Source of the DNA: Acidobacteriota bacterium
Lineage (GTDB): Bacteria; Acidobacteriota; JAAYUB01
Assembly: GCA_029565065.1 (NCBI GenBank)
Contig: JAKQOW010000036.1
Span: forward strand, 59,846-123,845
Direction of reading: 5' to 3'
Length of the DNA: 64,000 nt
Part shown: positions 17,765 to 58,474 of the stretch, in pieces
Position numbering within the stretch: position 1 is the stretch's first letter
How the letters are laid out: every line of letters starts with the position of its first letter
Translations under genes and position numbers: made by a program
Notes under the pieces: generated by a model
Databases searched by the model: none
The model's input: the letters and a program-made list of their open reading frames with translations, nothing else
Told to the model about the DNA's origin: nothing

Positions 17765-17769
17765 GGTTG

Positions 17770-36346: not shown

Positions 36347-36409
36347 ATCTAGAGCGGGTTTTGGGAGCCGGGAACAAGGACCCAGCACCGAGGATCCAGG
36401 TCCGAGATA

Positions 36410-36575
36410 GTTGATGGTTGATCGTTGATGGTTGATCGTTGGGAGCGAGCCCCGAATCCCGAACCCCGAGCCCCGAACTCCGAGCCCCGAACCCCGAAGT
36501 CCGATGTCCGATGTCCGAACTCCGCAAGACGTGAACGAGCCTCCAGCCTCGAGCCTCGAGCCTCGATTCGGATGC
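36410..36575 (+). repeat. Composite ~160-bp repeat, copy B (direct repeat of 34912-35072)
   Basis: gttgatggttgatcgttgatggttgatcgtt - cccgaatcccgaaccccgagccccgaac... - gtccgatgtccgatgtccg - cgagcctccagcctcgagcctcgagcctcga. Confidence 0.7.
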
Positions 36576-39456: not shown

Positions 39457-41592
39457 ATGCGCAACGCGACTATCCGCATCCTGCTGACGGCGGTCCTGGC
39501 GGCCGCCGGCATCCTGGGCGCTCTGGCGGCGGATCCGCCGGCGCTTCAGTATCCCAAGACGGCCACGGTGGACCAGACGGACGACTACCACGGCACCAAG
39601 GTGGCCGACCCGTACCGCTGGCTCGAGGACGACAAGGCCCCGGCCGTGGCCGCCTGGGTGCAGGAGCAGAACGCCCTCACCTTTGGCTACCTGGGCCAGA
39701 TCCCCTACCGCGACGCCATCCGCCGGCGGCTGGAGACGCTGATGAACTACCCCCGCTACAGCGCGCCGTTCCGCGCCGGGGACTACTATTTCTTCTCAAA
39801 GAACGACGGCCTCCAGAACCAGAGCGTGACCTACTACCAGAAGGGCCTGACCGGTGAGCCCAGGGTCTTCCTCGATCCCAACACGCTCTCGAAGGACGGC
39901 ACCACGCGGGCCGGCCTGGCCGGTTTCTCCGAAGACGATCGCTACGTCGTGGTCCGCTACTCGGCGGCCGGCTCCGACTGGGGCGAGCTGAAGGTCATGG
40001 GCGTGGCCAGCCGCCGCGAGCTGTCGGACCACCTGAAGTGGGTCAAGTTCTCCGGCGCGGCCTGGCGCGGCAACGGCTTCTACTACAGCCGCTACGACGC
40101 CCCCAAGCCGGGCGAGGAGCTCACCGCCCGGAACGAGAACCAGAAGATCTACTTCCACAAGCTGGGCGATCCCCAGGCCAAGGACCGCCTCGTCTTCGAG
40201 GACCCCGAGCATCCGCTGCGCTACCACGGCGCCGGCGTGACCGAGGACGGGCGCTACCTCATCATCTCCAGCTCCGAGGGGACCCACGGCAACGAGGTGC
40301 GCGTCCGCGACCTGAAGCGGAAGGGCAGCCAGTTCCAGGTGCTCTGCCCGGGATTCCAGTACAACTACTCGATCATCGACAACGTGGGCGAGCGCTTCCT
40401 CGTCCACACGGACCACGGGGCGCCCAACTACCGGGTGGTCCTGGTCGATCCGCGCCGGCCCGGGCCGGAGAACTGGCAGACCGTCGTCGCCGAGAAGAAG
40501 GACGTGCTGCGCGGCGCCTCGACCGCCGGCGGCAAGCTGTTCTGCACCTACCTTGTGGACGTGTCCACCCGCGTTTACCAGCACGCCCTGGACGGCCGCC
40601 TGGAGAAGGAGATCGAGCTCCCCGGCCTGGGCTCGGCGGGCGGTTTCTACGGCAAGCGGAAGGACACGACCCTGTTCTACACCTTCACCAACTTCACCTA
40701 TCCGCCGGTGATCTTCAAGTACGACCTGAAGACAGGCCGGAGCGAGCTGTTCCGCCGCACTGAGCTCCCCTTCGACTCGACCGGCTTTGAGGCGAAGCAG
40801 GTGTTCTATCCCTCGAAGGACGGCACGAAGATCCCCATGTTCATCGTGCACAAGAAAGGGTTGGCGCTCTCCGGCGACAACCCCACCTACCTGTACGCCT
40901 ACGGCGGCTTCAACGCCAGCATGACGCCGTCGTTCAGCGCCACGATGATGCTCTGGCTGGAAAGCGGCGGCGTCTACGCCATGGCCAACCTGCGGGGCGG
41001 CGGCGAGTACGGCGAGGCGTGGCACCAGGCCGGCATGCGCGAAAAGAAGCAGAACGTGTTCGATGACTTCATCGCTGCGGCCGAGTACCTGATCCGCGAA
41101 AAGTACACCTCGTCGAAGCGGCTGGCCATCGCCGGCGGCTCCAACGGCGGGTTGCTGGTGGGCGCCTGCATGACCCAGCGCCCCGAGCTTTACCAGGTCG
41201 CCCTGCCGGCGGTGGGCGTCATGGATATGCTCCGCTTCCACAAGTTCACCGTTGGGTGGGGCTGGACCGTGGAGTACGGCACCAGCGACGATCCCGCCCA
41301 GTTCAAGTACCTGCAGGCGTATTCACCGCTCCACAACCTGAAGCCGGGCGTGCGCTATCCGGCCACGCTGGTCACCACCGCCGACCACGACGACCGCGTG
41401 GTGCCGGCCCACTCGTTCAAGTTCATCGCCGCACTGCAGGCGTGCCAGGCCGGCCCGGACCCGGTGCTCATCCGCGTCGAGACCCGCTCCGGCCACGGCG
41501 CCTCTTCGCTCACCAAGGGCCTCGACCTCCAGGCCGACGCCTGGGCGTTCACGTTCTGGAACATGGGGGTGAAGCCCAAAATCGGTGAATAG
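39457..41592 (+). CDS. Prolyl oligopeptidase (S9A family), secreted
   Basis: Signal peptide; N-terminal beta-propeller region ([22 protein letters not shown]); catalytic domain [11 protein letters not shown] (Ser), [16 protein letters not shown] (Asp), RSGHGAS (His). Confidence 0.85.
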
Positions 41593-41616
41593 GTGAGTGG
41601 GTGAATCGGGAGGAGC

Positions 41617-41658
41617 AAACAGTGAACAGTAAACAGTAAACAGTAGACAGTGAATAGT
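41617..41658. repeat. Tandem heptamer array (RAACAGT) x6
   Basis: aaacagt gaacagt aaacagt aaacagt agacagt gaatagt. Confidence 0.7.
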
Positions 41659-41673
41659 GGGGAAAATTGGTAA

Positions 41674-41720
41674 ATCGGGCAGAGGGATCCGCCGGGACCC
41701 TCTGCCCGATTCATTTCTTG
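41674..41720 (+). terminator. Hairpin downstream of prolyl oligopeptidase gene (possible terminator)
   Basis: 13-bp stem ATCGGGCAGAGGG / CCCTCTGCCCGAT with 11-nt loop, then TCATTTCTTG. Confidence 0.45.
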
Positions 41721-41809
41721 CACCTGGAACCTGCGAACCTGAGAACCTGCGGACCTGCGACCTGGAACCTGCGAACCTGGAACCTGAGAACCTGGAACCT
41801 GTGAACCTG
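41721..41809. repeat. Tandem 7/8-mer array (N)GAACCTG x~12
   Basis: cacctg gaacctg cgaacctg agaacctg cggacctg cgacctg gaacctg cgaacctg gaacctg agaacctg gaacctg tgaacctg. Confidence 0.75.
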
Positions 41810-41942
41810 AGAATCGGTGAACGATGACAGGCACGATCGCCCGGCGGGCAGGCGGGAGGTACCGCGACCGGGAGGGAGCGGCGCGAAAGCCCACCCCGCG
41901 AAACCAGGGGAGCCCGCGACACCATTCCATCGCCCGCGGCAG

Positions 41943-41981
41943 CGAGTTTCACGGCGCCCGTCCGGCGGACGGGCGCTACTG
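41943..41981 (+). repeat. 39-bp direct repeat copy 1 (contains 9-bp-stem palindrome GCCCGTCCG-GC-GGACGGGC)
   Basis: cgagtttcacggcgcccgtccggcggacgggcgctactg; 38/39 identical to copy at 42121. Confidence 0.7.
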
Positions 41982-42120
41982 TGCCGTAGACTGCGTCACA
42001 GCGAACAGTAGGCCGCACGCCCGCCGGGCGCGGCCCGTCCCCAAGGCACGATTAAGCGATTCGCTCACAGGTTCGAGTCGCAGCGCGGCAAGGACGGATC
42101 AGACTCCCGCCACTTCTTGC

Positions 42121-42159
42121 CGAGTGTCACGGCGCCCGTCCGGCGGACGGGCGCTACTG
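42121..42159 (+). repeat. 39-bp direct repeat copy 2
   Basis: cgagtgtcacggcgcccgtccggcggacgggcgctactg. Confidence 0.7.
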
Positions 42160-42186
42160 CCATTGTGAGGCAACGCGATCGGGGAC

Positions 42187-42215
42187 TTGACAACTGTCAC
42201 GTGACACATTACACT
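42187..42215 (+). promoter_or_regulatory. higBA promoter-like TTGACA-17-TACACT with embedded 12-bp palindrome TGTCACGTGACA (candidate HigA operator)
   Basis: Seen directly; palindrome spans 42195-42206 between -35 and -10 elements. Confidence 0.55.
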
Positions 42216-42221
42216 TGAGGC

Positions 42222-42503
42222 GTGATCAAGAGCTTCGTTGACAAGCATACGGCGGAACTGTTCACGACCGGCCGGTCCAGGCGATTGCCGCCAGACATGG
42301 TGCGTCGGGCGAGAAGAAAGCTCGAGTCCGTCGATCTGGCCGCGCGTCTGGATGACCTTCGGGTTCCTCCGGGCAATCGCCTCCACAAACTCGGCGGAGA
42401 CCGGGAAGGACAGCATGCGATCACCATCAACGACCAGTGGCGCATCTGCTTCCGGTTCGTGGAGGGCGCTGCCTACGATGTTGAAGTGACGGATTATCAC
42501 TGA
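42222..42503 (+). CDS. higB: HigB toxin (RelE/ParE superfamily mRNA interferase)
   Basis: GTG start; product MIKSFVDKHTAELF...LHKLGGDREGQHAITINDQWRICFRFVEGAAYDVEVTDYH closely parallels plasmid/Vibrio HigB (MIKSF..., KLHPLKGDREGYWSI..., ...DYH). Confidence 0.85.
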   Translation: MIKSFVDKHTAELFTTGRSRRLPPDMVRRARRKLESVDLAARLDDLRVPPGNRLHKLGGDREGQHAITINDQWRICFRFVEGAAYDVEVTDYH

Positions 42504-42516
42504 AGCGAGGTGCGGG

Positions 42517-42831
42517 ATGAGCATCCTGAACACGAGACGGAAGATCGTTCGCCCCATCCACCCGGGGGAGATACTTCGGGAGGACTTCCTGCCTGACTAT
42601 GGCCTGACGGCTTCCGGTCTCGCGGCGGCGCTGGGCGTTTCGCGACAGACCGTGAATGAGCTGCTGCGCGAGCGTCGGTCGGTCAGCCCGGAGATGGCGC
42701 TCCGGCTTTCGCGTCTGTTTGGCAACTCCCCCGAGTTCTGGCTGAATGCTCAGCGTACGGTCGACCTCTGGGATGCAGCCCAATCTATCGGACGGGAGGT
42801 CGAGCGGATCAAGCCTTTGTCTGTGGCCTGA
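42517..42831 (+). CDS. higA: HigA antitoxin (XRE-family HTH)
   Basis: IHPGEILREDFL and HTH LAAALGVSRQTVNELLRERRSVSPEMALRLSRLFGNSPEFWLNAQ, typical HigA. Confidence 0.85.
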   Translation: MSILNTRRKIVRPIHPGEILREDFLPDYGLTASGLAAALGVSRQTVNELLRERRSVSPEMALRLSRLFGNSPEFWLNAQRTVDLWDAAQSIGREVERIKPLSVA

Positions 42832-42906
42832 CAACGACTTGCAGCGGATGGTCCACTGCGCGGCCCGCCGCTGAACCGGAGCGTTAGGCGGCTTACGACA
42901 TCATCA

Positions 42907-43848
42907 TTGCGGAGTATCGATTTGGAAGAAAAAACTGAAATTACGACCTTGCTTGAGAGAATTGCGATCGCGCTTGAGCGAATAGCAGACTTGCTTGCCA
43001 GACCAGACCAATCAGAAGATTCGTCTGGTCTGGTTGATTCAGAACCTCCTATTGCTCCCGAACCAACAGAACCTGCGCCTTCTACCAACGATATTACCTG
43101 GCTGCGGGACTTTCTTGCTTCACGGGGGATTTCAATAAAGACCATTCCTCAGGAGCAAGAGAGCGATGAAACTCTCGACAAGATAGCCTTGTTCATTGGG
43201 AACAGGCTAGAATCAGTCAATAGTGTTCTCGATTCCATCAAGGCGAATATGAATGTTGGGAGACCGTTCAGTCTGAATCTGAGAAACGAGTCCCAACAAA
43301 CCGTTGCAGATACAACCAATCTGTGTACAAATCTCTATAACATCGCCTTTCTTACAGCATACTACTATCAGAAATCCCCAGCCTATCAGCTTTATGCAAC
43401 CCCAAGCACATCGCCCAGAGCATTGAATTTTTATTCCGGACAATGGTTGGAGCGATTCATCAAGATCCAAGCCGTCTCGCTACTCAGAAGCAAATCGCTT
43501 GAATTCTCCTATATCTGCAATGCTCAAATTTCATTGCCAAAGGGGGATGATTTTGAACTGGATATGTTGTTTGAGGCAGAGGGAGAAGTGTTCTGGCTAG
43601 AAGCGAAAACTGGTGATTATAGAAGGCATATCGAAAAATATTCCAAGATGTCCAAGACTTTAGGTCTAGACCGCTCACATACCTTTATGATATTGGCGGA
43701 TGGCTCGGTAACTGACGCTCTGGCGCGCGACTTGGGTAATTTGTTTGGAATGACTGTGGCAAGGGTTGAGAAATTTGCAGAGCAATTGACCAAAGTGCTA
43801 CCCAAAAACCGCAATGAGACAGTTCAAGGTCGAGAAATATCACCATGA
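42907..43848 (+). CDS. Hypothetical low-GC protein with C-terminal PD-(D/E)xK nuclease-like motif
   Basis: No in-frame ATG near start (TTG/alternative start); Pro-rich linker; GDDFELDMLFEAEGEVFWLEAKTG fits D...E-x-K restriction-endonuclease-like core; GC well below genome average. Confidence 0.5.
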   Translation: MRSIDLEEKTEITTLLERIAIALERIADLLARPDQSEDSSGLVDSEPPIAPEPTEPAPSTNDITWLRDFLASRGISIKTIPQEQESDETLDKIALFIGNRLESVNSVLDSIKANMNVGRPFSLNLRNESQQTVADTTNLCTNLYNIAFLTAYYYQKSPAYQLYATPSTSPRALNFYSGQWLERFIKIQAVSLLRSKSLEFSYICNAQISLPKGDDFELDMLFEAEGEVFWLEAKTGDYRRHIEKYSKMSKTLGLDRSHTFMILADGSVTDALARDLGNLFGMTVARVEKFAEQLTKVLPKNRNETVQGREISP

Positions 43849-43965
43849 CCAGACGCCCAACAAGCGCTTGCAGCGGACGCTCGCTACGCTCGCAGCGCTG
43901 AAGCGCCAGCCGTTAGCCCGAAAGAGATTCGGGGCGACATGAGGACCAATGTGATATGAGTAAGG

Positions 43966-45432
43966 ATGACCATGTTTGAACAAGCTTTCAAGAATATTGA
44001 CGATGTGCTTTGGAAGGATGCCGGGTGTACCAGTGAACTGGATTACACCGAGCAGACTTCCTGGCTGCTATTCCTGAAATACCTCGATGCACTGGAGGCC
44101 GACCGTGCCACGGCTGCCGCCCTGAACGGCAAGACCTACACCCACATTCTGGATAAACCATACCGCTGGGGCTCCTGGGCCGCGCCGAGGGGCAAGGATG
44201 GCTCGATTGACCACAACACCGCTCTAACCGGCGACGACCTGATCCAGTTCGTCAACGGCAAGCTTTTCCCTTACCTGCACGGCTTCAAGCAGAAGGCTAG
44301 CGGGCCGAACACGGTCGAATACAAGATCGGCGAGATTTTCGGCGAGATCAAGAACCGCATCCAGAGCGGCTACAACCTACGCGAGGTCATTGACCAAATT
44401 GATGAACTGCGCTTCGCGTCGCAAGTTGAGAAGCACGAGCTTTCGCACCTGTACGAGGCGAAGATCAAGAACATGGGCAACGCCGGGCGCAACGGCGGCG
44501 AGTATTACACCCCGCGCCCGCTCATCCGCGCCATCGTGGCGGTGGTCGCGCCCAAGCTCGGCGAGACCATCTGCGACCCGGCGGTCGGCTCGGCGGGCTT
44601 CCTGTGCGAGGCATTCGAATATCTCAAGGCTCAGAACCCGAAGCGCACCACCGCCCAGGACCGCGCCTTGCAGGAGCGCACCTTCTTCGGCAAGGAAAAG
44701 AAGTCGCTGGCCTACGTCATCGCGATCATGAACATGATCCTGCACGGCATCGAGGCGCCCAACATCCTCCACGTCAACACGCTGGCCGAGAACCTGGCCG
44801 ACGTGCAGGAAAAGGACCGATTCGACATCATCCTCGCCAATCCGCCTTTTGGCGGCAAGGAGCGCAAGGAGGTCCAGCAGAACTTCCCAATTCGCACCGG
44901 TGAAACGGCTTTTCTCTTCCTCCAGCACTTCATCAAGGTACTCAAGGCCGGCGGCCGGGCGGGGATCGTCATCAAGAATACGTTTCTGAGCAACACCGAC
45001 AATGCCTCCGTAAGCCTGCGGCGGAAACTGCTGGAGGAATGCAACCTGCATACCGTGCTCGACTGCCCCGGCGGCACGTTCCAGGGCGCGGGCGTGAAGA
45101 CCGTGGTGCTGTTTTTCGAGAAGGGCGCGAAGACCAGGAAGGTGTGGTACTACCAACTCGACCCCGGCCGCAGCCTCGGCAAGACCAACCCGCTCAATGA
45201 TGACGACCTCGCCGAGTTCGTGCAGCTCCAGAAGACCTTCGCCGACTCACCCAAGAGCTGGAGCGTTGACGCCAATTATATTGATCCGACCACTTTCGAC
45301 CTCTCCGTGAAGAACCCCAACGGCGGCGAGACCGTGACCCACCGCAGTCCGCAGGAGATCATGGAAGAAATCGCCGTCCTAGACATCGAAAGCGCTGAGG
45401 TGCTGGAGAAGATCAGGGGGCTGCTGAAATGA
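43966..45432 (+). CDS. hsdM: Type I restriction-modification system, DNA methyltransferase subunit M (N6-adenine)
   Basis: HsdM N-domain; SAM-binding DPAVGSAGFL; catalytic NPPFG motif. Confidence 0.9.
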   Translation: MTMFEQAFKNIDDVLWKDAGCTSELDYTEQTSWLLFLKYLDALEADRATAAALNGKTYTHILDKPYRWGSWAAPRGKDGSIDHNTALTGDDLIQFVNGKLFPYLHGFKQKASGPNTVEYKIGEIFGEIKNRIQSGYNLREVIDQIDELRFASQVEKHELSHLYEAKIKNMGNAGRNGGEYYTPRPLIRAIVAVVAPKLGETICDPAVGSAGFLCEAFEYLKAQNPKRTTAQDRALQERTFFGKEKKSLAYVIAIMNMILHGIEAPNILHVNTLAENLADVQEKDRFDIILANPPFGGKERKEVQQNFPIRTGETAFLFLQHFIKVLKAGGRAGIVIKNTFLSNTDNASVSLRRKLLEECNLHTVLDCPGGTFQGAGVKTVVLFFEKGAKTRKVWYYQLDPGRSLGKTNPLNDDDLAEFVQLQKTFADSPKSWSVDANYIDPTTFDLSVKNPNGGETVTHRSPQEIMEEIAVLDIESAEVLEKIRGLLK

Positions 45433-46571
45433 AGAAGGGGTGGGAAACGAGGCGTATCGATGAGCTTTGCATAGTGGTCGCCGGGCAATCGCCGGAGGGG
45501 AAGTTCTATAACTCCGAGGGTCGGGGCCTTCCGTTCTATCAAGGTAAAAAGGACTTTGGGGAAAAGTTCATCGAGGCACCCACCACTTGGACAACGCAGA
45601 CGACCAAGATTGCCAAACAGGGCGATATCTTGATGTCCGTCCGCGCACCTGTTGGCCCTGTGAATTTTTCCACCGAGGAAATCTGCATTGGGCGCGGATT
45701 AGCTGCGATACGCTGCGGGACACAACTGAATCGAGATTTTCTTTTCTACCAGTTGCTCCACTTACAGCCTGAGATTGCTGGGAAAGAAGGCGCAGTGTTC
45801 GCATCAATCAACAAATCCGAAATCGAAGCCTTGCCGCTCGCGTTTACCCCGCTCCCCGAACAGCAGCGGATCGTGGGGGTATTGGATGAAACTTTTGCTG
45901 GTCTGGCCACCGCCCAAGCCAACGCCGAAAAGAACCTCCTGAACGCCCGCGCCCTATTCGAAAGCCACATGAATGACGTGTTCAGCAAGCGGGGCGAAGG
46001 GTGGGTGGAGAAGACGTTGGGGAAAATCGGCAAGGTCTCCATGTGCAAGAGAATCTTCAAGGAGGAGACGACAGCGACCGGAGACATTCCATTCTACAAG
46101 ATTGGGACTTTCGGAAAAGAGCCCGATGCATTCATTTCAAGCCAAACCTACAATGAATACAGGGCGAGATACCCCTTTCCTAAAAAAGGCGATATTCTTA
46201 TCTCGGCGTCGGGAACAATCGGGCGACGCGTCAGATACGACGGTGAACCCGCATATTTTCAGGACTCGAATATCGTCTGGATTGATAACGATGAAAGACA
46301 GGTGTCGAACGACTACCTGTATCACTTCTACGGAGCCTGTGAGTGGAACTCGACGAAAGGCGCTACCATATCGCGACTCTACAATGACAATCTGAGGCAA
46401 ATCGCTATTGCATTCCCTGAATCGAGTCAGGAGCAGCGGCGGATTGTCACCCAACTCGACTCCCTCTCCGCCGAAACCCGCCGCTTGGCCGCCATCTACG
46501 AGCGGAAGCTGGCGGCGCTGGAGACGCTGAAGAAATCGCTTCTACATCAGGCGTTTAACGGAGAACTGTGA
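45429..46571 (+). CDS. hsdS: Type I restriction-modification system, specificity subunit S
   Basis: Overlaps hsdM by ATGA; two target-recognition domains separated by a conserved central helix (LPEQQRIVGVLDETFAGLATAQANAEKN) and C-terminal helix (QEQRRIVTQLDSLSAETRRLAAIYERK). Confidence 0.85.
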   Translation: MKKGWETRRIDELCIVVAGQSPEGKFYNSEGRGLPFYQGKKDFGEKFIEAPTTWTTQTTKIAKQGDILMSVRAPVGPVNFSTEEICIGRGLAAIRCGTQLNRDFLFYQLLHLQPEIAGKEGAVFASINKSEIEALPLAFTPLPEQQRIVGVLDETFAGLATAQANAEKNLLNARALFESHMNDVFSKRGEGWVEKTLGKIGKVSMCKRIFKEETTATGDIPFYKIGTFGKEPDAFISSQTYNEYRARYPFPKKGDILISASGTIGRRVRYDGEPAYFQDSNIVWIDNDERQVSNDYLYHFYGACEWNSTKGATISRLYNDNLRQIAIAFPESSQEQRRIVTQLDSLSAETRRLAAIYERKLAALETLKKSLLHQAFNGEL

Positions 46572-46572
46572 C

Positions 46573-47496
46573 ATGAAAAGCTACTACCGAGTCATGTTGG
46601 GTGAAAAGAGCAAGTATGCCGAGGAGTGTTTTGCAGCGAACTGCATTGCCGCCGGCTTCATCCCTGATCAGAACTTGAAAGGAAAGTTGCCCGATCAATG
46701 GCGCACCTTCAATAAACAGTTTATTCCCGTGTTCCTCGCCGCTCATCCGGAGAAAACAAAAATCGGTGCAGGGCTAGCTTGTGGCGCGTTGTGGACGGTA
46801 TGCAAAGGGATGCAAAATGGCGATATAGTCTTATGTCCTGACGGCACGGGCAGATACCGGGCCGGTGAAATCAGTGGCGATTACTTTTATGAGCCCAGCA
46901 AGCACTTGTGCCATAGACGGCCTGTGACTTGGCTGAACGTGATGATTGACCGGGCCACGATGAGTGAGCCGCTGCGCAAATCCACCGGTTCAATCGGCAC
47001 GGTGAGCAACATCACGCTGCACCGCGATGAAATTGAAAAGCACACCGGCGGCGTTTCAACTCCGAAACTAATTTCCACCGACACCACAGTTGAGGACGCC
47101 TCTGCTTTCGCATTAGAAGAGCATTTGGAGGATTTCCTCGTCAAAAATTGGTCTCACACCGAACTCGGCAAAGATTACACAATTTACGAGGAGGACGGAG
47201 AGAAAGCACAGCAATACCAGACCGACACAGGACCGTTGGACATCCTCGCGATCAGCAAGGACAAAAAACATCTGTTGGTTGTGGAGTTGAAAAAGGGACG
47301 GGCCAGTGATCTGGTGGTCGGACAGACTCTCCGCTACATGAGCTTCGTCCAGGATGAATTGGCTGAGGAGGGACAGACAGTGCGGGGGTTGATAATCGCT
47401 CACGAGGACGATCAAAAAATCCGGCGCGCCCTCAGCATGACACCCAACATTTCCTTCTATCGCTACCAAGTCAGTTTCAAGTTAATGAAGGGATGA
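46573..47496 (+). CDS. Embedded cassette gene A: hypothetical protein with C-terminal PD-(D/E)xK (NucS/Mrr-cat-like) nuclease motif
   Basis: GPLDILAISKDKKHLLVVELKKGRASDLVVGQTLRYMSF ... VRGLIIAHEDD fits D-x(n)-E-L-K nuclease core; N-terminal ~150-aa domain of unknown function; starts 2 nt after hsdS stop. Confidence 0.6.
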   Translation: MKSYYRVMLGEKSKYAEECFAANCIAAGFIPDQNLKGKLPDQWRTFNKQFIPVFLAAHPEKTKIGAGLACGALWTVCKGMQNGDIVLCPDGTGRYRAGEISGDYFYEPSKHLCHRRPVTWLNVMIDRATMSEPLRKSTGSIGTVSNITLHRDEIEKHTGGVSTPKLISTDTTVEDASAFALEEHLEDFLVKNWSHTELGKDYTIYEEDGEKAQQYQTDTGPLDILAISKDKKHLLVVELKKGRASDLVVGQTLRYMSFVQDELAEEGQTVRGLIIAHEDDQKIRRALSMTPNISFYRYQVSFKLMKG

Positions 47497-47497
47497 C

Positions 47498-47593
47498 ATG
47501 AACGAAGCTGAAACGAGAGCCGAGCATATTGATCCCGCGCTGGCGGCGTTGAAGAAGTCGCTGCTGCTCCTGGCCTTTGCAGGAGAACTGTGA
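47498..47593 (+). pseudogene. Chimeric remnant: 51-nt hsdR 5' fragment (MNEAETRAEHIDPALAA) fused to 45-nt hsdS 3' fragment (LKKSLLLLAFAGEL-stop)
   Basis: 47498-47548 is 47/51 nt identical (all 4 differences synonymous) to hsdR start at 48391-48441. 47549-47593 parallels the hsdS 3' end at 46527-46571 (LKKSLLHQAFNGEL-stop). Confidence 0.8.
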
Positions 47594-48375
47594 TGAATAT
47601 GAAGAAATACTGCTACGACACAGAACCGATAGCCGGAATTGAGAAGCTGTGTGAGCGAATGACGGGGAAGGCGTTACAGTCTCCGTATCGTTCCACTGTG
47701 CCTTTACTGAGCCTCGTTGAACACAGTCAGCCTGAATGGCATTCGCTATTGGCGTCGTTGGGGACGCCGCCTGACCGAACGGTCCACTTTGAATACTGCA
47801 TCGCCTCGCCAAAGCCTGGAGGAAATCCGTCACAGACAGACGCCCTGCTGATGTCAGATTCAACTGTGTGGGCCGTTGAGGCGAAGTGGACAGAACCTCG
47901 GTATGAAACAGTGGCGAAAAGAATAAGCAAACCAGAGTCGGACGGCGCTGATCCGCGAACCACGGTTGATGGCTGGCTGAAATATCTCCAGCCGTTTACA
48001 ACACGAGATTTGCGCGTCGATGACTTTTTGGATGTGGTATATCAAGTATTGCATCGCGCCGCATCGGCGTGTGCTGTCGCAACCGATCTGCAACTCTCGC
48101 CGCACCTTGTGTATCTGCATTTTCATCCATCCCCGCTGGAGAGTTCCGCGACGACCGATCAGTATGTCTCGGACCTTCAGCATCTATATGCGTTGCTCGG
48201 CAATCCCTCCACCCTGAAGATCACCGTGGTTGAAATGCCGCTCAAGCCGACTGCGGAATTTGATGCCATCAAGGGTCTGGATAAGCGAGATCCAGGATCT
48301 GCCGCTGTGGTGAAAGCGGCGCTGTGCAAAGAGCCATTATTTACTTTCGGAAGCCCGATCATTACGCGATCATGA
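47593..48375 (+). CDS. Embedded cassette gene B: hypothetical protein with PD-(D/E)xK restriction-endonuclease-like core
   Basis: HFEYCIASPKPGGNPSQTDALLMSDSTVWAVEAKWTE contains E...D...E-A-K pattern; start overlaps remnant stop (TGATG). Confidence 0.55.
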   Translation: MNMKKYCYDTEPIAGIEKLCERMTGKALQSPYRSTVPLLSLVEHSQPEWHSLLASLGTPPDRTVHFEYCIASPKPGGNPSQTDALLMSDSTVWAVEAKWTEPRYETVAKRISKPESDGADPRTTVDGWLKYLQPFTTRDLRVDDFLDVVYQVLHRAASACAVATDLQLSPHLVYLHFHPSPLESSATTDQYVSDLQHLYALLGNPSTLKITVVEMPLKPTAEFDAIKGLDKRDPGSAAVVKAALCKEPLFTFGSPIITRS

Positions 48376-48390
48376 GGTCAGATCTCACGC

Positions 48391-50718
48391 ATGAACGAAG
48401 CCGAAACCAGAGCCGAGCACATTGACCCCGCGCTGGCGGCGGCGGGCTGGGGCGTCGTGGAGGGCAGCCGCGTGAGGCGGGAGTTTCCCATCACGCCGGG
48501 GCGCATCGAGGGGCTGGGCCGGCGCGGAAAGCCGCTGACCGCCGATTACGTTCTGGAATACCGCAACCGCAAACTGGCCGTAATCGAGGCCAAGGCGTGG
48601 GATCAAGAGTTGACCGAAGGAGTGGCGCAGGGCAAGAACTACGCGGGCAAGCTGCAGGTGCGCTTTGTCTATGCCACAAACGGGCGGGGCATCTACGCGA
48701 TAGACATGCAGACGGGCAAGGAAGGCGAGATCGCCGCCTACCCAACCCCGGACGAACTCTGGGCGATGACCTTTGCCGAGGAGAACGCCTGGCGGGACCG
48801 GTTCGCGGCGGTGCCGTACGAGGACAAGGGCGGCTCGCATCCGACGCGTTACTACCAGGACATCGCCATCGAGCGGGTGATGCAGGCCATTTCGGAGAAC
48901 CGGACGCGCATCCTGCTGACGCTGGCCACCGGAACGGGGAAAACCTTCATCGCATTCCAGATCGCGTGGAAGCTGTTCCATGCGCGCTGGAACCTCTCCC
49001 GCGAACCGACGCGCCGGCCGCGCATCCTGTTCTTGGCCGACCGGAACATCCTGGCGAACCAGGCTTACAACGCCTTCTCCGCCTTCCCCGAGGACGCGCT
49101 GGTGCGGATCGAGCCGGGCGACATCCGCAAGAAAGGCAAGGTGCCGAAGAACGGCAGCCTGTTTTTCACCATCTTCCAGACGTTCATGAGTGGTCCGCCC
49201 AAGGACGGCCGACCGTCACCCTATTTCGGCGAATACCCGCCGGACTTCTTCGACTTTATCGTGATTGATGAGTGCCATCGCGGCGGGGCGAACGACGAGA
49301 GCACCTGGCGTGGCATCCTGGACTACTTCGCGCCCGCCGTGCAGCTCGGCCTCACCGCCACACCCAAGCGCGATGAGAACGTGAACACCTACCGCTATTT
49401 CGGCGAGCCGGTCTATATGTATTCGCTCAAGGACGGGATCAACGACGGCTTCCTGACCCCGTTCAAGGTGAAGCAGATCCAGACCACGCTGGACGAGTAC
49501 GTGTACACGCCGGACGACACGGTGATCGAAGGCGAGATCGAGGAGGGCAAGCGGTACGAAGAGGCGGACTTCAACCGCATCATCGAGATCAGGAAACGCG
49601 AGGAATACCGGGTCAGAATCTTCATGGATCTGATCAACCAGAACGAGAAGACGCTGGTGTTCTGCGCGAACCAGGCCCACGCCCTGGCCGTGCGCGACCT
49701 CGTCAACCAGCTGAAGACCAGCAAGGACCCGAACTACTGCCAGCGGGTGACGGCGAACGACGGTGAGCTGGGCGAGCAGCATTTGCGCGACTTCCAGGAC
49801 AACGAGAAGACGATCCCGATGGTCCTGACCACGTCACAGAAGCTCTCGACGGGGGTGGACGCTCGGAACATCCGCAACATCGTCCTGATGCGGCCCATCA
49901 ACCGGCTCATCGAGTTCAAACAGATCATCGGGCGCGGCACCCGGCTCTATGACGGCAAAGATTACTTCACGATCTACGACTTCGTGAATGCGCACGAGCA
50001 TTTCAGCGATTCTGGGTGGGACGGCGAGCCGATGGCCCCGGAACCGCACGAGATCTATCCGCCGCACGAACCGAGCCTGGCAGGCGAAGTGCGGGAACCC
50101 AGGGAGAAATATCCAAAACGCCAGCGGGTGAAAGTGAAACTGGCGGACGGCAAGGAGCGCACCATCCAGCACATGATGATGACGAGCTTCTGGCATCCCG
50201 ACGGCACGCCCATGTCCGCGCAGCAGTTCATGGAACTGCTCTTCGGAAAGCTCCCGTACTTCTTCAAGGACGAAGCCGAACTCCGGGCCATTTGGAGTGC
50301 GCCTGACACGCGCAAAAAGTTATTGCAGGGCTTGGCCGAGAAGGGCTTCGGGCATGACCAACTGGCTGAGATGCAGACGATCATCGACGCCGAGAAGAGC
50401 GATCTGTTCGACGTGCTCGCCCATGTTGCCTACGCCTTGCCGCCCGTCACGCGTGAAGTCCGCGCCGCGAATGCGAGAGTTCACATCAATACCCGTTTCA
50501 GCGACAAGCAGAAGGTGTTCCTCGATTTCGTGCTCCAGCATTACATCACGGTCGGCGTGGAAGAGCTCGATCAAGAAAAGCTTACCCCGCTGCTCCTGCT
50601 CAAGTACCACAATTCCCTGGCGGATGCCGTTGCCGACCTGGGCGGCCGGCCCGAAGAGATAAGCAAAGCCTTCGCCGGGTTCCAGAAATATCTCTATCAG
50701 CAAACGTCTGCGGCATGA
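48391..50718 (+). CDS. hsdR: Type I restriction enzyme, R subunit (nuclease plus SF2 helicase)
   Basis: N-terminal nuclease motif LAVIEAKAW; Walker A LATGTGKT; DEAH-like VIDECHR; motif VI QIIGRGTRL. Confidence 0.9.
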   Translation: MNEAETRAEHIDPALAAAGWGVVEGSRVRREFPITPGRIEGLGRRGKPLTADYVLEYRNRKLAVIEAKAWDQELTEGVAQGKNYAGKLQVRFVYATNGRGIYAIDMQTGKEGEIAAYPTPDELWAMTFAEENAWRDRFAAVPYEDKGGSHPTRYYQDIAIERVMQAISENRTRILLTLATGTGKTFIAFQIAWKLFHARWNLSREPTRRPRILFLADRNILANQAYNAFSAFPEDALVRIEPGDIRKKGKVPKNGSLFFTIFQTFMSGPPKDGRPSPYFGEYPPDFFDFIVIDECHRGGANDESTWRGILDYFAPAVQLGLTATPKRDENVNTYRYFGEPVYMYSLKDGINDGFLTPFKVKQIQTTLDEYVYTPDDTVIEGEIEEGKRYEEADFNRIIEIRKREEYRVRIFMDLINQNEKTLVFCANQAHALAVRDLVNQLKTSKDPNYCQRVTANDGELGEQHLRDFQDNEKTIPMVLTTSQKLSTGVDARNIRNIVLMRPINRLIEFKQIIGRGTRLYDGKDYFTIYDFVNAHEHFSDSGWDGEPMAPEPHEIYPPHEPSLAGEVREPREKYPKRQRVKVKLADGKERTIQHMMMTSFWHPDGTPMSAQQFMELLFGKLPYFFKDEAELRAIWSAPDTRKKLLQGLAEKGFGHDQLAEMQTIIDAEKSDLFDVLAHVAYALPPVTREVRAANARVHINTRFSDKQKVFLDFVLQHYITVGVEELDQEKLTPLLLLKYHNSLADAVADLGGRPEEISKAFAGFQKYLYQQTSAA

Positions 50719-50790
50719 TAGGTGCGAGAAGATAATAGGTTAACAAACAGTTACAGCGGACGGCTCGCAGCGCGGCCCTCCGCTTAACCG

Positions 50791-51522
50791 ATGGATGAGT
50801 GTTCAGATGGGAAAGGAATGATAACAAAGTGGCTACATATCAGTGAACTGGGGGGCGATCCCTGGATTTTGCCGATCTGGACGGCTGTGAATGAAGCTGT
50901 GAAATCTGGTAAAGCCACCGATCTTCAGCCCGAAGTGTACCGTCTTGGATTACACGTCTCACTACGACTGAATATCTTGCCTCGGGTAGTCAAACGGGTG
51001 AATTCCAACACATTGCTCTTGTATAGAATCATCAGAGAACACGGACCCGAGTATGTTTCGACTGAAGCAATTAGGGGATACGCATTTCCTGTCGATGATG
51101 ATCTGAAGTACTCATTGTTAGCTGATATCGATGCCCTGCTCTTTGAACTCAATTCGGTTTGTGAACTTATGAAGAATCTTTTTGGGTTATTGCAGGCGCA
51201 TATTGGCCGGCCGATACATAAAGATAAGATTGGCAAAGCTTTAAATGATGTACTTTCTCAAAGTACCCGGAATGCAAATTGGTTTGCAATGTTGGATGAG
51301 CATAGAAATTTTTTTATGCACAATGGTGCTCCGTACATAGCCGTGGATCTTTCGAATGAGCCGGTGGAATTGGAAATTCTGATTATGAAAGAAAATATAA
51401 AGAGCTTTACAGATCCAGCAAAATTCGTTTCACTTTCGCAGATCAATTCTATTGTCCAAGGGTTTATAGATTCGAAACAAAAGCTGCAAGACTATTTGAT
51501 ATCACTCTTCAAACAGGAGTAA
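50791..51522 (+). CDS. Hypothetical AT-rich protein with Rx4H (HEPN-like) motif, downstream of hsdR
   Basis: Lowest GC in the window; EHRNFFMHNG contains R-x4-H; alternative start ATG 50818 with AAAGGA RBS. Confidence 0.45.
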   Translation: MDECSDGKGMITKWLHISELGGDPWILPIWTAVNEAVKSGKATDLQPEVYRLGLHVSLRLNILPRVVKRVNSNTLLLYRIIREHGPEYVSTEAIRGYAFPVDDDLKYSLLADIDALLFELNSVCELMKNLFGLLQAHIGRPIHKDKIGKALNDVLSQSTRNANWFAMLDEHRNFFMHNGAPYIAVDLSNEPVELEILIMKENIKSFTDPAKFVSLSQINSIVQGFIDSKQKLQDYLISLFKQE

Positions 51523-51541
51523 GCGCGAACCAGCAAATCCA

Positions 51542-52213
51542 GTGAACAGCTTTCAAATCCACCAGACCACGCGCCGCGTGGCGGTTGATTCTCGGCGTTT
51601 GAAGGCAGCTGCAGATATCATGTCTGACAACAAGCTTATTCTTCATCCCATCGATCCCATGGCAAGCCTACCGTCGGTGTCCGCGGTACGGATCCGCCTC
51701 TCTGAGATTGGTCTCATCGGGCCGCCCATCGAGTATTACGGAAAGACACATTATCTTCAGGGTCCGCGATTTGAAGCGCTCGTGCCGTTCGCCCATTCGC
51801 ATCGGTCCGTAGTCCTCACTTCAATTGATCCCACCTTCTTCACACCACGCATCACCGACAGTCGCAGCATCGTTTCCATAGAAATCTGCCAACCGACCGA
51901 CGCTATCGAATTTCTTGGGGCGGGCAACGTAGAAAGCCCCTGCTGTCCCTCGTGTGACTTCGAGATCAAGGATTGGGCGGCCTTGGTCTCGACGTGGTGT
52001 AACAACAAATGCACATACCAGTGGACTTGTCCGGGTTGTCAGCGCAGCTGGAGACCCTGGCATCTCGATTGGCGCGGCACGAACGGTTTTGGTCGCTTCG
52101 CCATTGCCTTCTGGAACGTCCATCAAAGCGAAGCCATACCCAGCCAGGAACTTCTAGAGGTTGTTCACGAAGTCTGCGGCACGCCGTGGACCTTCTTCTA
52201 CTATCGGCTTTAG
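51542..52213 (+). CDS. Hypothetical protein with C-terminal Cys-rich (zinc-binding-like) region
   Basis: CCPSCDF...CNNKCTYQWTCPGCQRSW; start uncertain (51542 or 51620). Confidence 0.4.
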   Translation: MNSFQIHQTTRRVAVDSRRLKAAADIMSDNKLILHPIDPMASLPSVSAVRIRLSEIGLIGPPIEYYGKTHYLQGPRFEALVPFAHSHRSVVLTSIDPTFFTPRITDSRSIVSIEICQPTDAIEFLGAGNVESPCCPSCDFEIKDWAALVSTWCNNKCTYQWTCPGCQRSWRPWHLDWRGTNGFGRFAIAFWNVHQSEAIPSQELLEVVHEVCGTPWTFFYYRL

Positions 52214-52669
52214 GTCCTGCAATATGTTCCAGGCATGCAGTGAACTGCCACTGTTGACTGGCAGAAGGTCGTATTTATGGAACCCATGCAATTCAATACT
52301 ATCGCGGTCAGAACGACTTCGTCGTGATGCTATCAATGTGAGCCGGCGGTTGCTGAGAGACGCTGACGGAGTGGCGTGTCATCTCAGGTGAGGCGCCGCG
52401 AGGACCCCTCCCGCGTCGACGCCGCTACCACTCCAACAACAGTCGTCTTCGCAGTAATGGTTGGGAAGATGCAGTGCGGGTTGACACGGATGGGTTCAGA
52501 TGGTAAAGGACGATAACGATATGGCCATACCTGATTTTGGGAGTGCGATCTGTACACGTCTGATGTTTTGAGCTGACTGTAAGGATCACGCCGACCATGA
52601 GGCGCCCGACGCACTCGCTCTTGGAGCAACCTACCTGAGGATGGATTAAAGACGTGATGGAGACATGAC

Positions 52670-53200
52670 ATGCGCAAGGAGTACGGGAAAGCGCTCCGGC
52701 AGTATTTCGCCAAGCAGATGAAGGAGCGACTCCCGGAATTCAAAGAGGAGACGGTGCAGTCCGTGTACCTGTGGCCCGGGCAGCGGGCGTTCGGCCGGTC
52801 CGTCTCCGGTTCGCTGAAGTGCTGGATCGTGCTCAGCCCCAGCCCCAAGGACTACGACGAGTTCACGGTCCTGATCGGATGGTCGACGTGGGGGCGCTAT
52901 CCGGAGCTATCGGTGATCCCGTCCATCCAATCGCCGTCGCCGGACCGGGCGGAGTTCAGCCAGCCGGAGTACCTCACGCGACTCCCGCAGCTCTGGACCC
53001 AGCGGGACGAATGGTGGGTGATTCAGAAGTTCGAGCCGGCGCTCACCGTGGAGCAGATGACGGCCCGGATGGCGCCCATCCCGGCGCCGGCGGCCGAGGC
53101 GAAAGTGATCCCTCGCGTGGACGACGCCATCGACCAGGTGATCAAGATCGGCATCCCTTATCTTTCCGAGTTCGTCAACACAAGGGAAGGAAGCGAATGA
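52670..53200 (+). CDS. Hypothetical protein (176 aa)
   Basis: High-GC ORF with consistent codon usage; no recognisable motif. Confidence 0.45.
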   Translation: MRKEYGKALRQYFAKQMKERLPEFKEETVQSVYLWPGQRAFGRSVSGSLKCWIVLSPSPKDYDEFTVLIGWSTWGRYPELSVIPSIQSPSPDRAEFSQPEYLTRLPQLWTQRDEWWVIQKFEPALTVEQMTARMAPIPAPAAEAKVIPRVDDAIDQVIKIGIPYLSEFVNTREGSE

Positions 53201-53285
53201 CCCGAAGTATCCGGCGGCGCGCCCGGCGCGCGCCGCCGCGGCGCCGGCGTCGGTCCTCAACTCAGACTGAAGGAGTGACACATCC

Positions 53286-53954
53286 ATGGCCATGACTCTC
53301 CAGGAAGCGCTGGCGCGGCTCGAGGCAATGGGGGACGAGAAGGTGCGGAAGCACAACCGCAAGAGCGGCGCCGGCGACGACCAGTACGGCGTCCGGCTGG
53401 GCGACATCCGCAAGCTCGCTGCGACGATCAAGGCCGACCATGCACTCGCCCTGGCGCTCTGGGAAACGGGGAACATCGACGCCCGGCTCCTGGCCGTCCT
53501 GCTGCTCAAGCCGAAGGAACTGTCCCGCGATCAGGTGGACCGGCTGGTGCGCTCCGGCGACTTCGCCCAGTTGGCCGACTGGCTGAACGCCTACGTGGTC
53601 CAGAAACATCCCGAGAAGGAATCGCTCCGCCAGCGGTGGCTGGCGGACGCCGACCCGTGGGCGGCGCGCGCCGGCTGGAGCCTGACCTACGAACGGATCA
53701 CCCGGGATCCGGCCGGGCTCGACCTGCCGGCGCTCCTGGACCGGCTCGAGGCGGAGATGGGGGGCGCCCCGCCGCCCGCGCAGTGGACCATGAATTTCTG
53801 CCTCGGCGGGATCGGCATCCACTTCCCCGAGCATCGCCGGCGGGCGGTGGCCATCGGCGAGACGCTCGGGCTCTACCGCGACTACCCGGTCTCCAAGGGC
53901 TGCACCTCGCCGTACGTCCCGGCCTGGATCGCCGAGATGGTGCGCCGGCTTTAG
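53286..53954 (+). CDS. DNA alkylation repair enzyme (AlkD/AlkC-like HEAT-repeat glycosylase family)
   Basis: GAAGGAG RBS; helical repeat protein with ...DIRKLAATIKADHALALALWETGNIDARLLAVLLL... characteristic of the DNA_alkylation family. Confidence 0.65.
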   Translation: MAMTLQEALARLEAMGDEKVRKHNRKSGAGDDQYGVRLGDIRKLAATIKADHALALALWETGNIDARLLAVLLLKPKELSRDQVDRLVRSGDFAQLADWLNAYVVQKHPEKESLRQRWLADADPWAARAGWSLTYERITRDPAGLDLPALLDRLEAEMGGAPPPAQWTMNFCLGGIGIHFPEHRRRAVAIGETLGLYRDYPVSKGCTSPYVPAWIAEMVRRL

Positions 53955-57552: not shown

Positions 57553-58011
57553 TCAGTCGCTCCCCTGGCAGTCCCGGCAGATCCCGAAGAAGTCCAGCCG
57601 GTGGGTGAGGATCCGGAAGCCCGTCTCCGCGGCGACCTCCTGGGTCAGGTCGTGCAGGCTGCTCAAGTCCGGATCGAAGATGGCGCCGCACCGCGTGCAG
57701 ATTAGGTGGGGGTGCGGGTACGGCCGGTGGCCGTCGTATCGATTGCCCCGGTCGGCAAACCCCAGTTCCAGCACCTCGCCGATTTCCTTCAGCACGGCGA
57801 TGGTCTTGTAGATCGTGGCCAGGCTGACGGTGGGGAAGCGGGCGTGGACCTTGGCGTAAACGGCCTCGACGCTGGGGTGGCCTTCGCTCCGGGACAGCAC
57901 CTCGAGCACCGCCAGGCGCTGCGGGGTGACGCGGAAACCCCGCGCCCGTAATTTCTCCAGCATCTGGCTGCGACGGGATCGGCTCTCGGATTCAGACTTG
58001 TGGGTGTGCAT
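57553..58011 (-). CDS. Fur-family transcriptional regulator (PerR-like, adjacent to katG)
   Basis: DNA-binding helix TPQRLAVLEVL; metal sites HPHLICTRCG and CRDCQG (Cys4); alternative start at internal MLEKLRARG (57963). Confidence 0.8.
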   Translation of the reverse strand: MHTHKSESESRSRRSQMLEKLRARGFRVTPQRLAVLEVLSRSEGHPSVEAVYAKVHARFPTVSLATIYKTIAVLKEIGEVLELGFADRGNRYDGHRPYPHPHLICTRCGAIFDPDLSSLHDLTQEVAAETGFRILTHRLDFFGICRDCQGSD

Positions 58012-58045
58012 GGTATCAAGCTATCAACTGGCAGATGATTAGTCA

Positions 58046-58073
58046 ATAATTATTATTTTAAAATAATTATTAT
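58046..58073. promoter_or_regulatory. AT-rich Fur/PerR-box-like inverted repeat upstream of the Fur-family gene
   Basis: ATAATTATTATTTT|AAAATAATTATTAT, 13/14 matched arms, in an otherwise GC-rich genome. Confidence 0.55.
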
Positions 58074-58474
58074 TTATAATACGGGGATTGAATCCTGCTG
58101 CTCCCGCGGGTTGAATTGCATTGTCTGCGGGGAGGGGTATTGAATAATCTGTTTGAAATAAAAAAACGGTGTGCTCATCGGCGTGATCGCCATCGTCCAC
58201 GTGTTCATGTCCCACGTCGCCTCAAGTTGTGGAAAATTTTCTCCGCCCCGCATCAGGCGTGACGGAAGCGTCCGACTGACGAGACGGAACCGGCCGAACG
58301 GATCATTCTCGCCATCCGGCCACCGGGCGGGGCTGGGATGCCGCAGCCCGCGGTGGCCCCGGGCTCCTATCCGCGCGGGCAATTAAAATTCGTGCGGACA
58401 AATCAACCGTTTACCGCTATGCTGAGGGCACATTCTGCGGTCGGAATGGAACCGTCTGACCTGGAGTTCATCGG

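Follow-up and report, generated by a model that had tools for sequence, protein, structure and literature searches.

A mosaic defence locus around an EcoAI-family Type I restriction-modification operon with two embedded cargo genes in an Acidobacteriota bacterium

A block of genes at positions 41593-53285 of a 64,000-nucleotide stretch of the genome of an uncultured Acidobacteriota bacterium (GCA_029565065.1, contig JAKQOW010000036.1, positions 59,846 to 123,845 of the forward strand; this whole stretch is called the window, and all positions refer to it) is probably a horizontally acquired defence locus that was assembled stepwise around a Type I restriction-modification (R-M) operon of the EcoAI family. 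The block has a GC content of 56.0%, against 66.5% for the remainder of the window, and its composition changes from gene to gene. It is a defence island of an already known kind ('guilt-by-embedding') to which new family members are added, and it overturns nothing in current understanding. The points worth keeping are an apparent recombination scar between the embedded genes, a variable cargo slot in the EcoAI lineage, and two undescribed protein families. A preliminary description, made from the sequence alone, had called the region a mosaic defence island; the description is accurate and the label reasonable.

The Type I operon and its embedded genes

The core of the block consists of the following reading frames:

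43966-45432, forward strand: hsdM, methyltransferase subunit (N6_Mtase 2.2e-62, HsdM_N 1.3e-8, PADLOC MTase_I 1e-164)
45429-46571, forward strand: hsdS, specificity subunit (Methylase_S 6.8e-42, PADLOC Specificity_I 1e-92)
46573-47496, forward strand: cargo 1, PDC-S02 (PADLOC PDC-S02 4.4e-147, residues 1-306 on profile positions 1-307 of 308)
47498-47593, forward strand: 31-codon chimeric open reading frame (ORF; 96 nt), 5' end of hsdR fused to 3' end of hsdS
47593-48375, forward strand: cargo 2, DUF6946 protein (PF22187, 29.5 bits, cut-off 27)
48391-50718, forward strand: hsdR, EcoAI/FtnUII-family restriction subunit (NF046051; ResIII, Helicase_C and EcoEI_R_C domains)

The hsdM and hsdS genes are both full length and overlap by 4 nt (45429-45432), and HsdS contains two Methylase_S stretches, which represent its two target-recognition domains. 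HsdR scores 817.7 bits against the NCBIfam equivalog NF046051 (cut-off 550; positions 1-770 of 768) and, since it passes this EcoAI/FtnUII threshold, is assigned to a Type IB enzyme. It is 62-75% identical to the closest members of the family in the plasmid collection, with the 75% being reached by HsdR of a Methylomagnum plasmid. Type I enzymes methylate a bipartite target as HsdM2S, while HsdR2M2S translocates and cuts unmethylated DNA. The core of the block is an intact EcoAI-family operon with the order hsdM-hsdS-[cargo]-hsdR, for which both sequence-specific methylation and ATP-dependent restriction of unmodified DNA are predicted. With its HsdR above the equivalog cut-off and its full-length HsdM and HsdS it resembles the known EcoAI/FtnUII enzymes, but its hsdR lies downstream of hsdM-hsdS with 1.8 kb of cargo in between.

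Other readings of the hsd genes were rejected. The MADS model NF047738 (MAD2) reaches 82 bits against a cut-off of 720, and PADLOC mad2 and mad5 are far weaker than the Type I models, which also score far higher than BREX, Dnd and PbeA. The MADS, BREX and Dnd models match only through common methyltransferase and helicase domains, far below their cut-offs. The PADLOC-style profile search proposed in the preliminary description returned the Type I R-M models together with a full-length PDC-S02, and the complete system that it had described, with two cargo genes embedded between hsdS and hsdR (46573-47496 and 47593-48375), is indeed present.

The PDC-S02 product combines an N-terminal DUF8426 domain (precomputed Pfam annotation) with a C-terminal NucS-like PD-(D/E)xK domain (NucS_C 8.7e-7). 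On Acinetobacter plasmids, a 57%-identical PDC-S02 gene directly follows hsdS, and an Abi-family gene lies between it and hsdR. The DUF6946 protein shows a D...E-A-K motif in its translation, and the authors of the family place it in the PDDEXK clan CL0236 (Pfam PF22187; PMC10584680). The protein has no PADLOC, PHROG, plasmid or phage match. ABC-ATPase and anticodon-nuclease domains occur in no protein of the island, and an anticodon nuclease of the PrrC/RloC type was rejected. The hsdS/PDC-S02 and PDC-S02/mini-ORF junctions both read TGAcATG and the mini-ORF/DUF6946 junction reads TGATG; because stop and start codons abut or overlap in this way, the cargo genes are probably co-translated with the R-M genes. 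A 9-nt string, TGACATGAA (stop codon, C, ATGAA), stands at both ends of the PDC-S02 gene (46569-46577 and 47494-47502). This pair could be an insertion footprint at an ancestral junction between the hsdS stop and the hsdR start, or a convergent arrangement for translational coupling.

Related systems carry other genes at the same place. An EcoAI system on the Methylomagnum plasmid has the order hsdM-hsdS-[Phd/YefM-PIN pair]-hsdR, and an Aquincola plasmid has a Phd/YefM-PIN pair directly before hsdR (hsdM and hsdS fall outside the stretch retrieved). In an EcoAI system on a Nostoc plasmid the order is hsdM-hsdS-[PDDEXK protein]-hsdR. In this lineage, the junction between hsdS and hsdR acts as a cargo slot. 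About 1 kb downstream of its hsdR, the Nostoc plasmid (locus L106, 10303-12099) also encodes a CBASS cyclase and an S-4TM effector, another case of defence genes clustering after hsdR.

PrrC of EcoprrI and the Rlo genes of Campylobacter are the classical genes embedded in Type I operons. With such operons (EcoprrI/PrrC, Rlo, TgvAB, PDC) the window operon shares the order hsdM-hsdS-[foreign genes]-hsdR, cargo that consists of nucleases dispensable for R-M chemistry, one of them matching a PDC model, and the presence of other cargo in the same slot of related systems. Unlike PrrC/RloC and TgvAB, its cargo is neither an ABC-ATPase anticodon nuclease nor GmrSD-like, and in contrast to the PADLOC PDC candidates its second cargo, DUF6946, is not represented in PADLOC. 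It differs further in the hsdR'-'hsdS chimera between the cargo genes, which would record their stacking. TgvAB of Vibrio cholerae is a precedent for embedded defence genes, described in a paper that also cites RloF (PMC11411939), and the PDC models originate from a 'guilt-by-embedding' survey (10.1101/2024.01.29.577857). Type I operons with embedded genes already serve to nominate new defence systems.

A chimeric reading frame between the cargo genes

Between the two cargo genes, positions 47497-47548 match the start of hsdR (48390-48441) at 92% identity, and positions 47537-47593 (57 nt) match the end of hsdS (46515-46571) at 77%. For the hsdR fragment, the resident hsdR is the closest match (47 of 51 nt). 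The chimera joins in frame the first 17 codons of an hsdR and the last ~14 codons of an hsdS, and its translation, MNEAETRAEHIDPALAALKKSLLLLAFAGEL, divides into MNEAETRAEHIDPALAA, which is the HsdR N-terminus, and LKKSLLLLAFAGEL, which is the conserved C-terminal motif of HsdS. The join falls on a 9-nt microhomology, CTGGCGGCG, found in both parent sequences. The ORF is called as a gene in conspecific contigs, and its protein cluster has a single member.

The simplest reading of these sequence relationships is that the 31-codon ORF represents a recombination scar, left where two hsdS-cargo-hsdR modules were joined. On this reading, one module, hsdS-PDC-S02-hsdR, and another, hsdS-DUF6946-hsdR, were fused by microhomology-mediated recombination over the 9 nt, either as a direct junction or through deletion between tandem systems, and the outcome is one R-M system with two cargo genes. 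A comparable scar is absent from the three loci checked (Acinetobacter, Methylomagnum and Nostoc) and is not mentioned in passages of PMC11411939 and 10.1101/2024.01.29.577857. The fusion of two modules at a microhomology offers a testable route by which embedded cassettes accumulate.

The ends of the slot are themselves conserved. In three comparisons, the first 60 nt of hsdR rank third to fourth of 40 windows in nucleotide conservation, and the C-terminus of HsdS is conserved between the window and Methylomagnum. Conserved ends around variable content would fit cassette exchange by recombination. A tentative proposal, possible rather than probable, is that the 3' end of hsdS and the 5' end of hsdR act as recombination anchors, between which cargo is swapped and stacked across phyla without a dedicated recombinase; the 31-codon chimera would then be the fossil of one stacking event, and the remaining low-GC genes, a CARF-less Can2-type nuclease with a conserved N-terminal helix and a member of a Pfam-less HEPN family, would have joined the locus as further undescribed effectors, each encoded by a single gene.

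Accessory genes of the block

On both sides of the operon lie further genes, including a toxin-antitoxin pair with a promoter-like site:

42187-42215, forward strand: higBA promoter-like site TTGACA-17-TACACT (sigma-70-like, 10 of 12 consensus positions matched)
42222-42503, forward strand: higB, RelE-fold toxin of 93 aa (PF05015 2.1e-17, profile positions 1-91 of 91)
42517-42831, forward strand: higA, XRE-HTH antitoxin of 104 aa (HTH_3 4.9e-10, HTH_31 8e-7)
42907-43848, forward strand: CARF-less Can2/VC1899 (Card1-type) PD-(D/E)xK nuclease, start probably at 42922
50818-51522, forward strand: HEPN-domain protein of 234 aa, predicted RNase, with an invariant RNxxxH motif
51620-52213, forward strand: four-cysteine zinc-ribbon protein of 197 aa counted from M27 (the ORF opens at 51542; homologues start at M27)

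The preliminary description had held that several genes of the block belong to no recognisable family and could be new defence components. Most of them fit known superfamilies (Can2/Card1 nuclease, HEPN, PDDEXK clan). Its remote-homology searches, when carried out, placed 42907-43848 with Can2-like nucleases, 50818-51522 with HEPN proteins and 51620-52213 with zinc ribbons. A defence role is suggested for the R-M operon, HigBA, PDC-S02, DUF6946 and the HEPN gene; for 42907-43848, the zinc-ribbon gene and a further gene at 52670-53200, little or nothing points to one. The analysis shows the gene identities, predicted folds, conserved catalytic motifs, the chimera between the cargo genes, the variable slot in related systems and the mosaic composition; enzymatic activity, an anti-phage function of the accessory genes and the order of acquisition are inferred.

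The HigB/HigA pair is an ordinary member of the HigBA type II systems, with nothing notable to set it apart, and had been correctly named. HigB scores 63.8 bits against PF05015 (cut-off 27) and HigA 39.7 bits against HTH_3 (cut-off 23), and higA starts 13 nt past higB. Like other such systems, it has the toxin-first order, a full-length PF05015 toxin, an XRE-HTH antitoxin and a palindrome inside the promoter. This palindrome, TGTCACGTGACA, is perfect over 12 bp, lies in the promoter spacer at 42195-42206 and is likely the HigA operator. The pair would comprise a ribosome-dependent mRNA-cleaving toxin and an autorepressing antitoxin, and likely serves in addiction or abortive infection.

The protein encoded at 42907-43848 had been called unannotatable, with a PD-(D/E)xK-like motif. 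The motif was rightly recognised, and the protein can now be annotated: it contains a Card1-type (DUF1887) PD-(D/E)xK domain with the catalytic E/D...ExK residues intact. Its best structural matches are Can2, Card1, Can1 and Cdn1. The AlphaFold model (predicted local distance difference test, pLDDT, 89.7) has an N-terminal helix at residues 6-31, a disordered linker and ~240 structured residues. The helix is conserved and amphipathic, and the extended nuclease domain would span about residues 61-300. The family comprises ~80 clusters, none of which has a name or a Pfam domain, and its invariant residues are G178, W180, E182, R183, D219, E232 and K234. The PADLOC models CARF_PDDEXK and Csx1 are hit weakly. 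The PADLOC match starts at profile position 132 of 364, past the CARF part, and none of 57 family members matches a Pfam CARF family.

In Can2 itself, the CARF domain spans residues 3-151 and the nuclease domain residues 166-366 (149 and 200 residues), and the latter includes an accessory alpha/beta motif common to VC1899 (PMC7969007). Given the aligned lengths and the PADLOC alignment start, the window protein appears to correspond to the whole extended nuclease domain without CARF. We predict it to be an active metal-dependent nuclease in the Can2/VC1899 lineage, one that would not be regulable through a CARF domain, so that cyclic oligoadenylates could not switch it on by that route. It shares with Can2, Card1 and VC1899 the catalytic residues and the motifs GxW[LF]E ... 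ELD ... E[AC]K, but has an N-terminal helix and disordered linker in place of the CARF domain, and its family does not usually stand beside CRISPR-cas genes. VC1899 is likewise an orphan without a response to cA4, yet it has retained the CARF fold (PMC7969007). The CARF-less family bears on the regulation and evolution of CARF nucleases as a natural 'sensor-free' version. No member was found in the plasmid collection, and the viral contigs gave one weak match.

The HEPN protein belongs to a family of at least 249 clusters of ~232-236 residues, present in many phyla and without a Pfam domain. Residues R163, N164 and H168, which form the Rx4-6H motif of HEPN RNases, are invariant in 92 sequences of ~50% mean identity. 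The predicted model (pLDDT 90.3) appears to have a helical-bundle core, with HEPN toxins as its best structural hits. The N-terminus is extended by ~90 residues that include an invariant W/P-rich motif, and a small beta-sheet is inserted past the catalytic motif. No Pfam, PADLOC or NCBIfam model matches the protein at threshold. The curated model PF18730 (HEPN_Cthe2314) is hit below threshold by 12 of the 92 members (best E 0.0035), the window protein not being among them. In its R-N-x3-H motif, and probably in a helical-bundle core, the family resembles HepT/YutE, SO_3166, the C-terminal domain of AbiA, HEC-08 and HEPN_Cthe2314, and like HEPN toxin and abortive-infection RNases it is sporadic, linked to mobile elements and embedded with one copy in a Type I system. 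It differs from them in lacking a threshold model and a partner gene and in having the extra N-terminus and the inserted beta-sheet.

The embedded copy is that of Ferrovum, where a homologue lies inside an unrelated Type I system, in the interval from hsdS to hsdR. The window gene would represent an undescribed family of RNases seen in two different Type I contexts. Other homologues also have mobile or defence-like surroundings, in an integrase-flanked block of small genes and near a transposase and a Dam-like methylase, and no conserved partner gene, MNT or other, accompanies the homologues in the loci examined. On a Cupriavidus necator replicon (locus L103, 8585-9693), a DUF2513 gene comes directly before a 33%-identical homologue, and an ISL3 transposase comes after it; DUF2513 and HEPN might form a two-gene module there, a pairing that is unseen in the other loci. 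Searches of phage, plasmid and viral-contig collections with the HEPN, DUF6946 and Can2-like proteins and with the 176-aa product of 52670-53200 were negative or nearly so. Three families without a PADLOC defence model are possible additions to candidate lists: DUF6946, which is embedded, the HEPN family and the CARF-less Can2 family.

In the zinc-ribbon protein, C109, C112, C137 and C140 are invariant (CPxC...CxxC). A word-index search recovered six relatives and a profile search of cluster representatives 621; in Pfam and the PDB, nothing beyond generic zinc ribbons is matched. There is no evidence for a defence role of this protein or for a partnership with the HEPN protein. The earlier calls of two further genes after hsdR, one HEPN-like and one rich in cysteine, are borne out by the RNxxxH motif and the four invariant cysteines.

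Mosaic composition of the block

The gene-by-gene GC shifts noted in the preliminary description are real and range from 41.6 to 63.7% per gene (HEPN gene 41.6%, 42907-43848 44.9%, hsdR 61.2%, 52670-53200 63.7%), and the sliding GC profile dips to ~40-45% at 43.0-43.8 kb and 50.8-51.6 kb. At third codon positions (GC3), the genes fall into at least five classes between 0.43 and 0.87, against 0.92-0.95 for host genes in the flanks. The gene at 52670-53200 has a GC3 of 0.87, hsdM and hsdR 0.82-0.84, and higB and higA 0.71-0.75 (higB 0.71); hsdS, both cargo genes and the zinc-ribbon gene lie at 0.56-0.65, with hsdS at 0.65 set apart from hsdM and hsdR, and the lowest values are those of 42907-43848 (0.45) and the HEPN gene (0.43). 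Such shifts from one gene to the next point to recent and separate acquisitions. HigBA, the Can2-type nuclease, the HEPN RNase and the zinc-ribbon protein would represent side modules, each with its own base composition.

Alternative explanations

Several observations weigh against acquisition and stepwise assembly of a defence locus. Every conspecific contig that a look-up of the flanking peptidase returned carries the same block (13 read, five distinct places inspected), and no empty site was found. The comparison with related genomes by which the preliminary description had hoped to define the insertion boundaries thus recovered the block in conspecifics and no boundaries, the nearest species representatives having a peptidase at most 69% identical and no shared synteny. 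The 64-kb window contains no tRNA, and neither an integrase nor a transposase lies within ~10 kb of the block to the left or right (the preliminary description had likewise seen no integrase or tRNA), nor does any direct, inverted or terminal repeat flank the island, the only matches being weak ones of 74-81% identity that are consistent with chance. In the absence of integrase, tRNA, flanking repeat and empty site, insertion and boundaries are read from composition alone, and the island as a mobile insertion could not be shown. Protein constraint alone may explain the strong conservation of the hsdR 5' end, and DUF6946 passes its Pfam threshold only narrowly (29.5 against 27 bits). A single PDC-S02 representative has been tested and did not protect E. 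coli against T4, T5 or T7 (10.1101/2024.09.26.614923). Homologues of the Can2-like protein occupy unrelated, mostly housekeeping neighbourhoods in five of six other loci, and those of the zinc-ribbon protein stand in housekeeping contexts in the two contexts recovered. The identity of the block in every conspecific contig and the lack of an integrase, tRNA or terminal repeats would suit a long-resident chromosomal locus whose composition reflects gene-specific constraints, with the 31-codon ORF, intact and placed for translational coupling, as a small functional gene. Such residency is nevertheless improbable. For GC3 values that depart from the host by up to 0.5 and change from gene to gene, there is hardly an explanation other than recent acquisitions made separately. 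Plasmids of other phyla carry close relatives of the hsd genes and of PDC-S02, and the 31-codon ORF, the sole member of its protein cluster, passes from 92% nucleotide identity with the start of hsdR directly into the in-frame HsdS motif.

Two further alternatives concern individual genes of the locus. The gene at 42907-43848 could be a genuine type III CRISPR ancillary effector of the Can2/Card1 kind, responding to cyclic oligoadenylates made elsewhere in the genome, with its position in the island incidental. The structural matches to Can2, Card1, Can1 and Cdn1 and the weak CARF_PDDEXK and Csx1 hits are in keeping with this, as is the homologue P0152 described below. That the gene is such an effector is nonetheless quite unlikely, as its PADLOC match begins beyond the CARF part, only one helix and a disordered linker precede its ~240 structured residues, family members have no Pfam CARF match, and CRISPR genes are absent within 8-9 kb in five of the six other loci on which the neighbourhood statistics are based. 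Counting the window, a CRISPR-cas association was found in one of seven loci, that of P0152 in an Acidobacteriota metagenome-assembled genome (MAG; locus L091, 8001-16500). P0152 is 55% identical to the window protein and sits upstream of a type III-A cas6-cas10-csm2-5 operon at a distance of ~0.5 kb, with a cold-shock gene alone between them. HEPN toxins usually have a cognate partner, as in HEPN-MNT systems, and the HEPN and zinc-ribbon genes follow hsdR directly, on the same strand and 20-98 nt apart, as they would if the pair were attached to hsdR as a toxin-antitoxin or abortive-infection module of two genes. There is little chance that they form such a module: the two families never co-occur in the other loci examined (HEPN loci L086-L089 and L103, with different neighbours; zinc-ribbon loci L093 and L094, with no HEPN neighbour), and GC3 values of 0.43 and 0.64 suggest separate acquisitions. 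The pairing was rejected for want of co-occurrence.

Flanks, spacers and boundaries

The remaining features lie at the two ends of the block:

41580-41822, no strand: tandem 7/8-mer arrays (AAACAGT; ACCTG[N]GA) after the prolyl-oligopeptidase gene, TRF scores 56-116
41943-41981 and 42121-42159, forward strand: pair of 39-bp palindromic direct repeats, 97% identical
52214-52669, no strand: stretch without a convincing gene (456 bp, GC 53.9%)
52670-53200, forward strand: gene for a 176-aa protein, function not assigned (GC3 0.87)

Both flanks hold ordinary chromosomal genes. On the left are two major facilitator superfamily (MFS) transporters and then a prolyl oligopeptidase (39457-41592); on the right an AlkD-like DNA-alkylation repair gene (53286-53954) precedes AhpC/TSA-like, haem peroxidase-family and Kef-type antiporter genes. 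By an exact-protein look-up of the flanking peptidase, at least 13 contigs from metagenomes or MAGs belong to the same species, GCA_035348115.1 among them. A peptidase gene also stands beside a Can2-like homologue in another locus (L090), but it encodes a 27%-identical paralogue, and this adjacency was dismissed as coincidence rather than shared synteny.

Judged from sequence composition, the foreign DNA may extend from the spacer between the peptidase gene and higB to the gap at 52214-52669, which is the probable right edge. This gap holds only short or overlapping ORFs without a family match, in agreement with the preliminary description, and has no Rfam match. For the product of 52670-53200, Pfam, NCBIfam, PADLOC, PHROG, the PDB and the plasmid collection all gave no match. 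Its 90%-identity cluster comprises five 176-aa members, the sole named one coming from Acidobacteriota MAGs. Membership of this gene in the island is doubtful and, with its near-host composition, it may be resident.

At the left end, the preliminary description had pointed to heptamer arrays and 39-bp repeats preceding the island. Both exist, but the arrays do not mark a boundary: further heptamer arrays with other units occur at 34956-35038 and 36306-36566, so that 7/8-mer arrays are a feature of the spacers of this genome. The units vary among spacers (CCGATGT, GATCGTT, CGAACCC, CGAGCCT, AAACAGT and ACCTGNGA). The two additional arrays flank a 377-aa minus-strand gene (~35074-36207) without a Pfam hit, in a patch of lower GC. 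A 21-nt direct repeat, 81% identical between its copies at 41569-41589 and 41801-41821, brackets the arrays beside the peptidase gene and includes the last codons of that gene (AATCGGTGAA). An ORF at 41824-42168, with which the range of the preliminary description began, has no family hit, is called in none of five conspecific contigs and was rejected as a gene. The start positions within that range also shift, likely to 42922, 50818 and 51620 for the three genes outside the operon discussed above.

The 39-bp repeats are 178 bp apart, enclose 139 bp and occur in the 64-kb window in these two copies only. Compared with shuffled controls, the 241-nt region that holds them has the better fold (z = -4.07), since pairing between the two palindromes is possible. 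A CRISPR array, defined by at least three repeats, spacers of 25-50 nt and a match above the Rfam gathering score, was rejected: there are two copies with a 139-nt spacer, and their CRISPR-DR9 matches, at 28.5 and 21.9 bits, fall short of the gathering score of 45. Classical terminators were likewise rejected. The repeats could be elements of the repetitive extragenic palindromic (REP) or miniature inverted-repeat transposable element (MITE) kind, a small RNA (sRNA), or paired protein-binding sites.

Stretches of 700 bp with less than 58% GC also occur outside the island, at 11001-11700, 17501-17900, 57801-58100 and 62301-62800, and these patches are maybe further acquired genes or AT-rich spacers.

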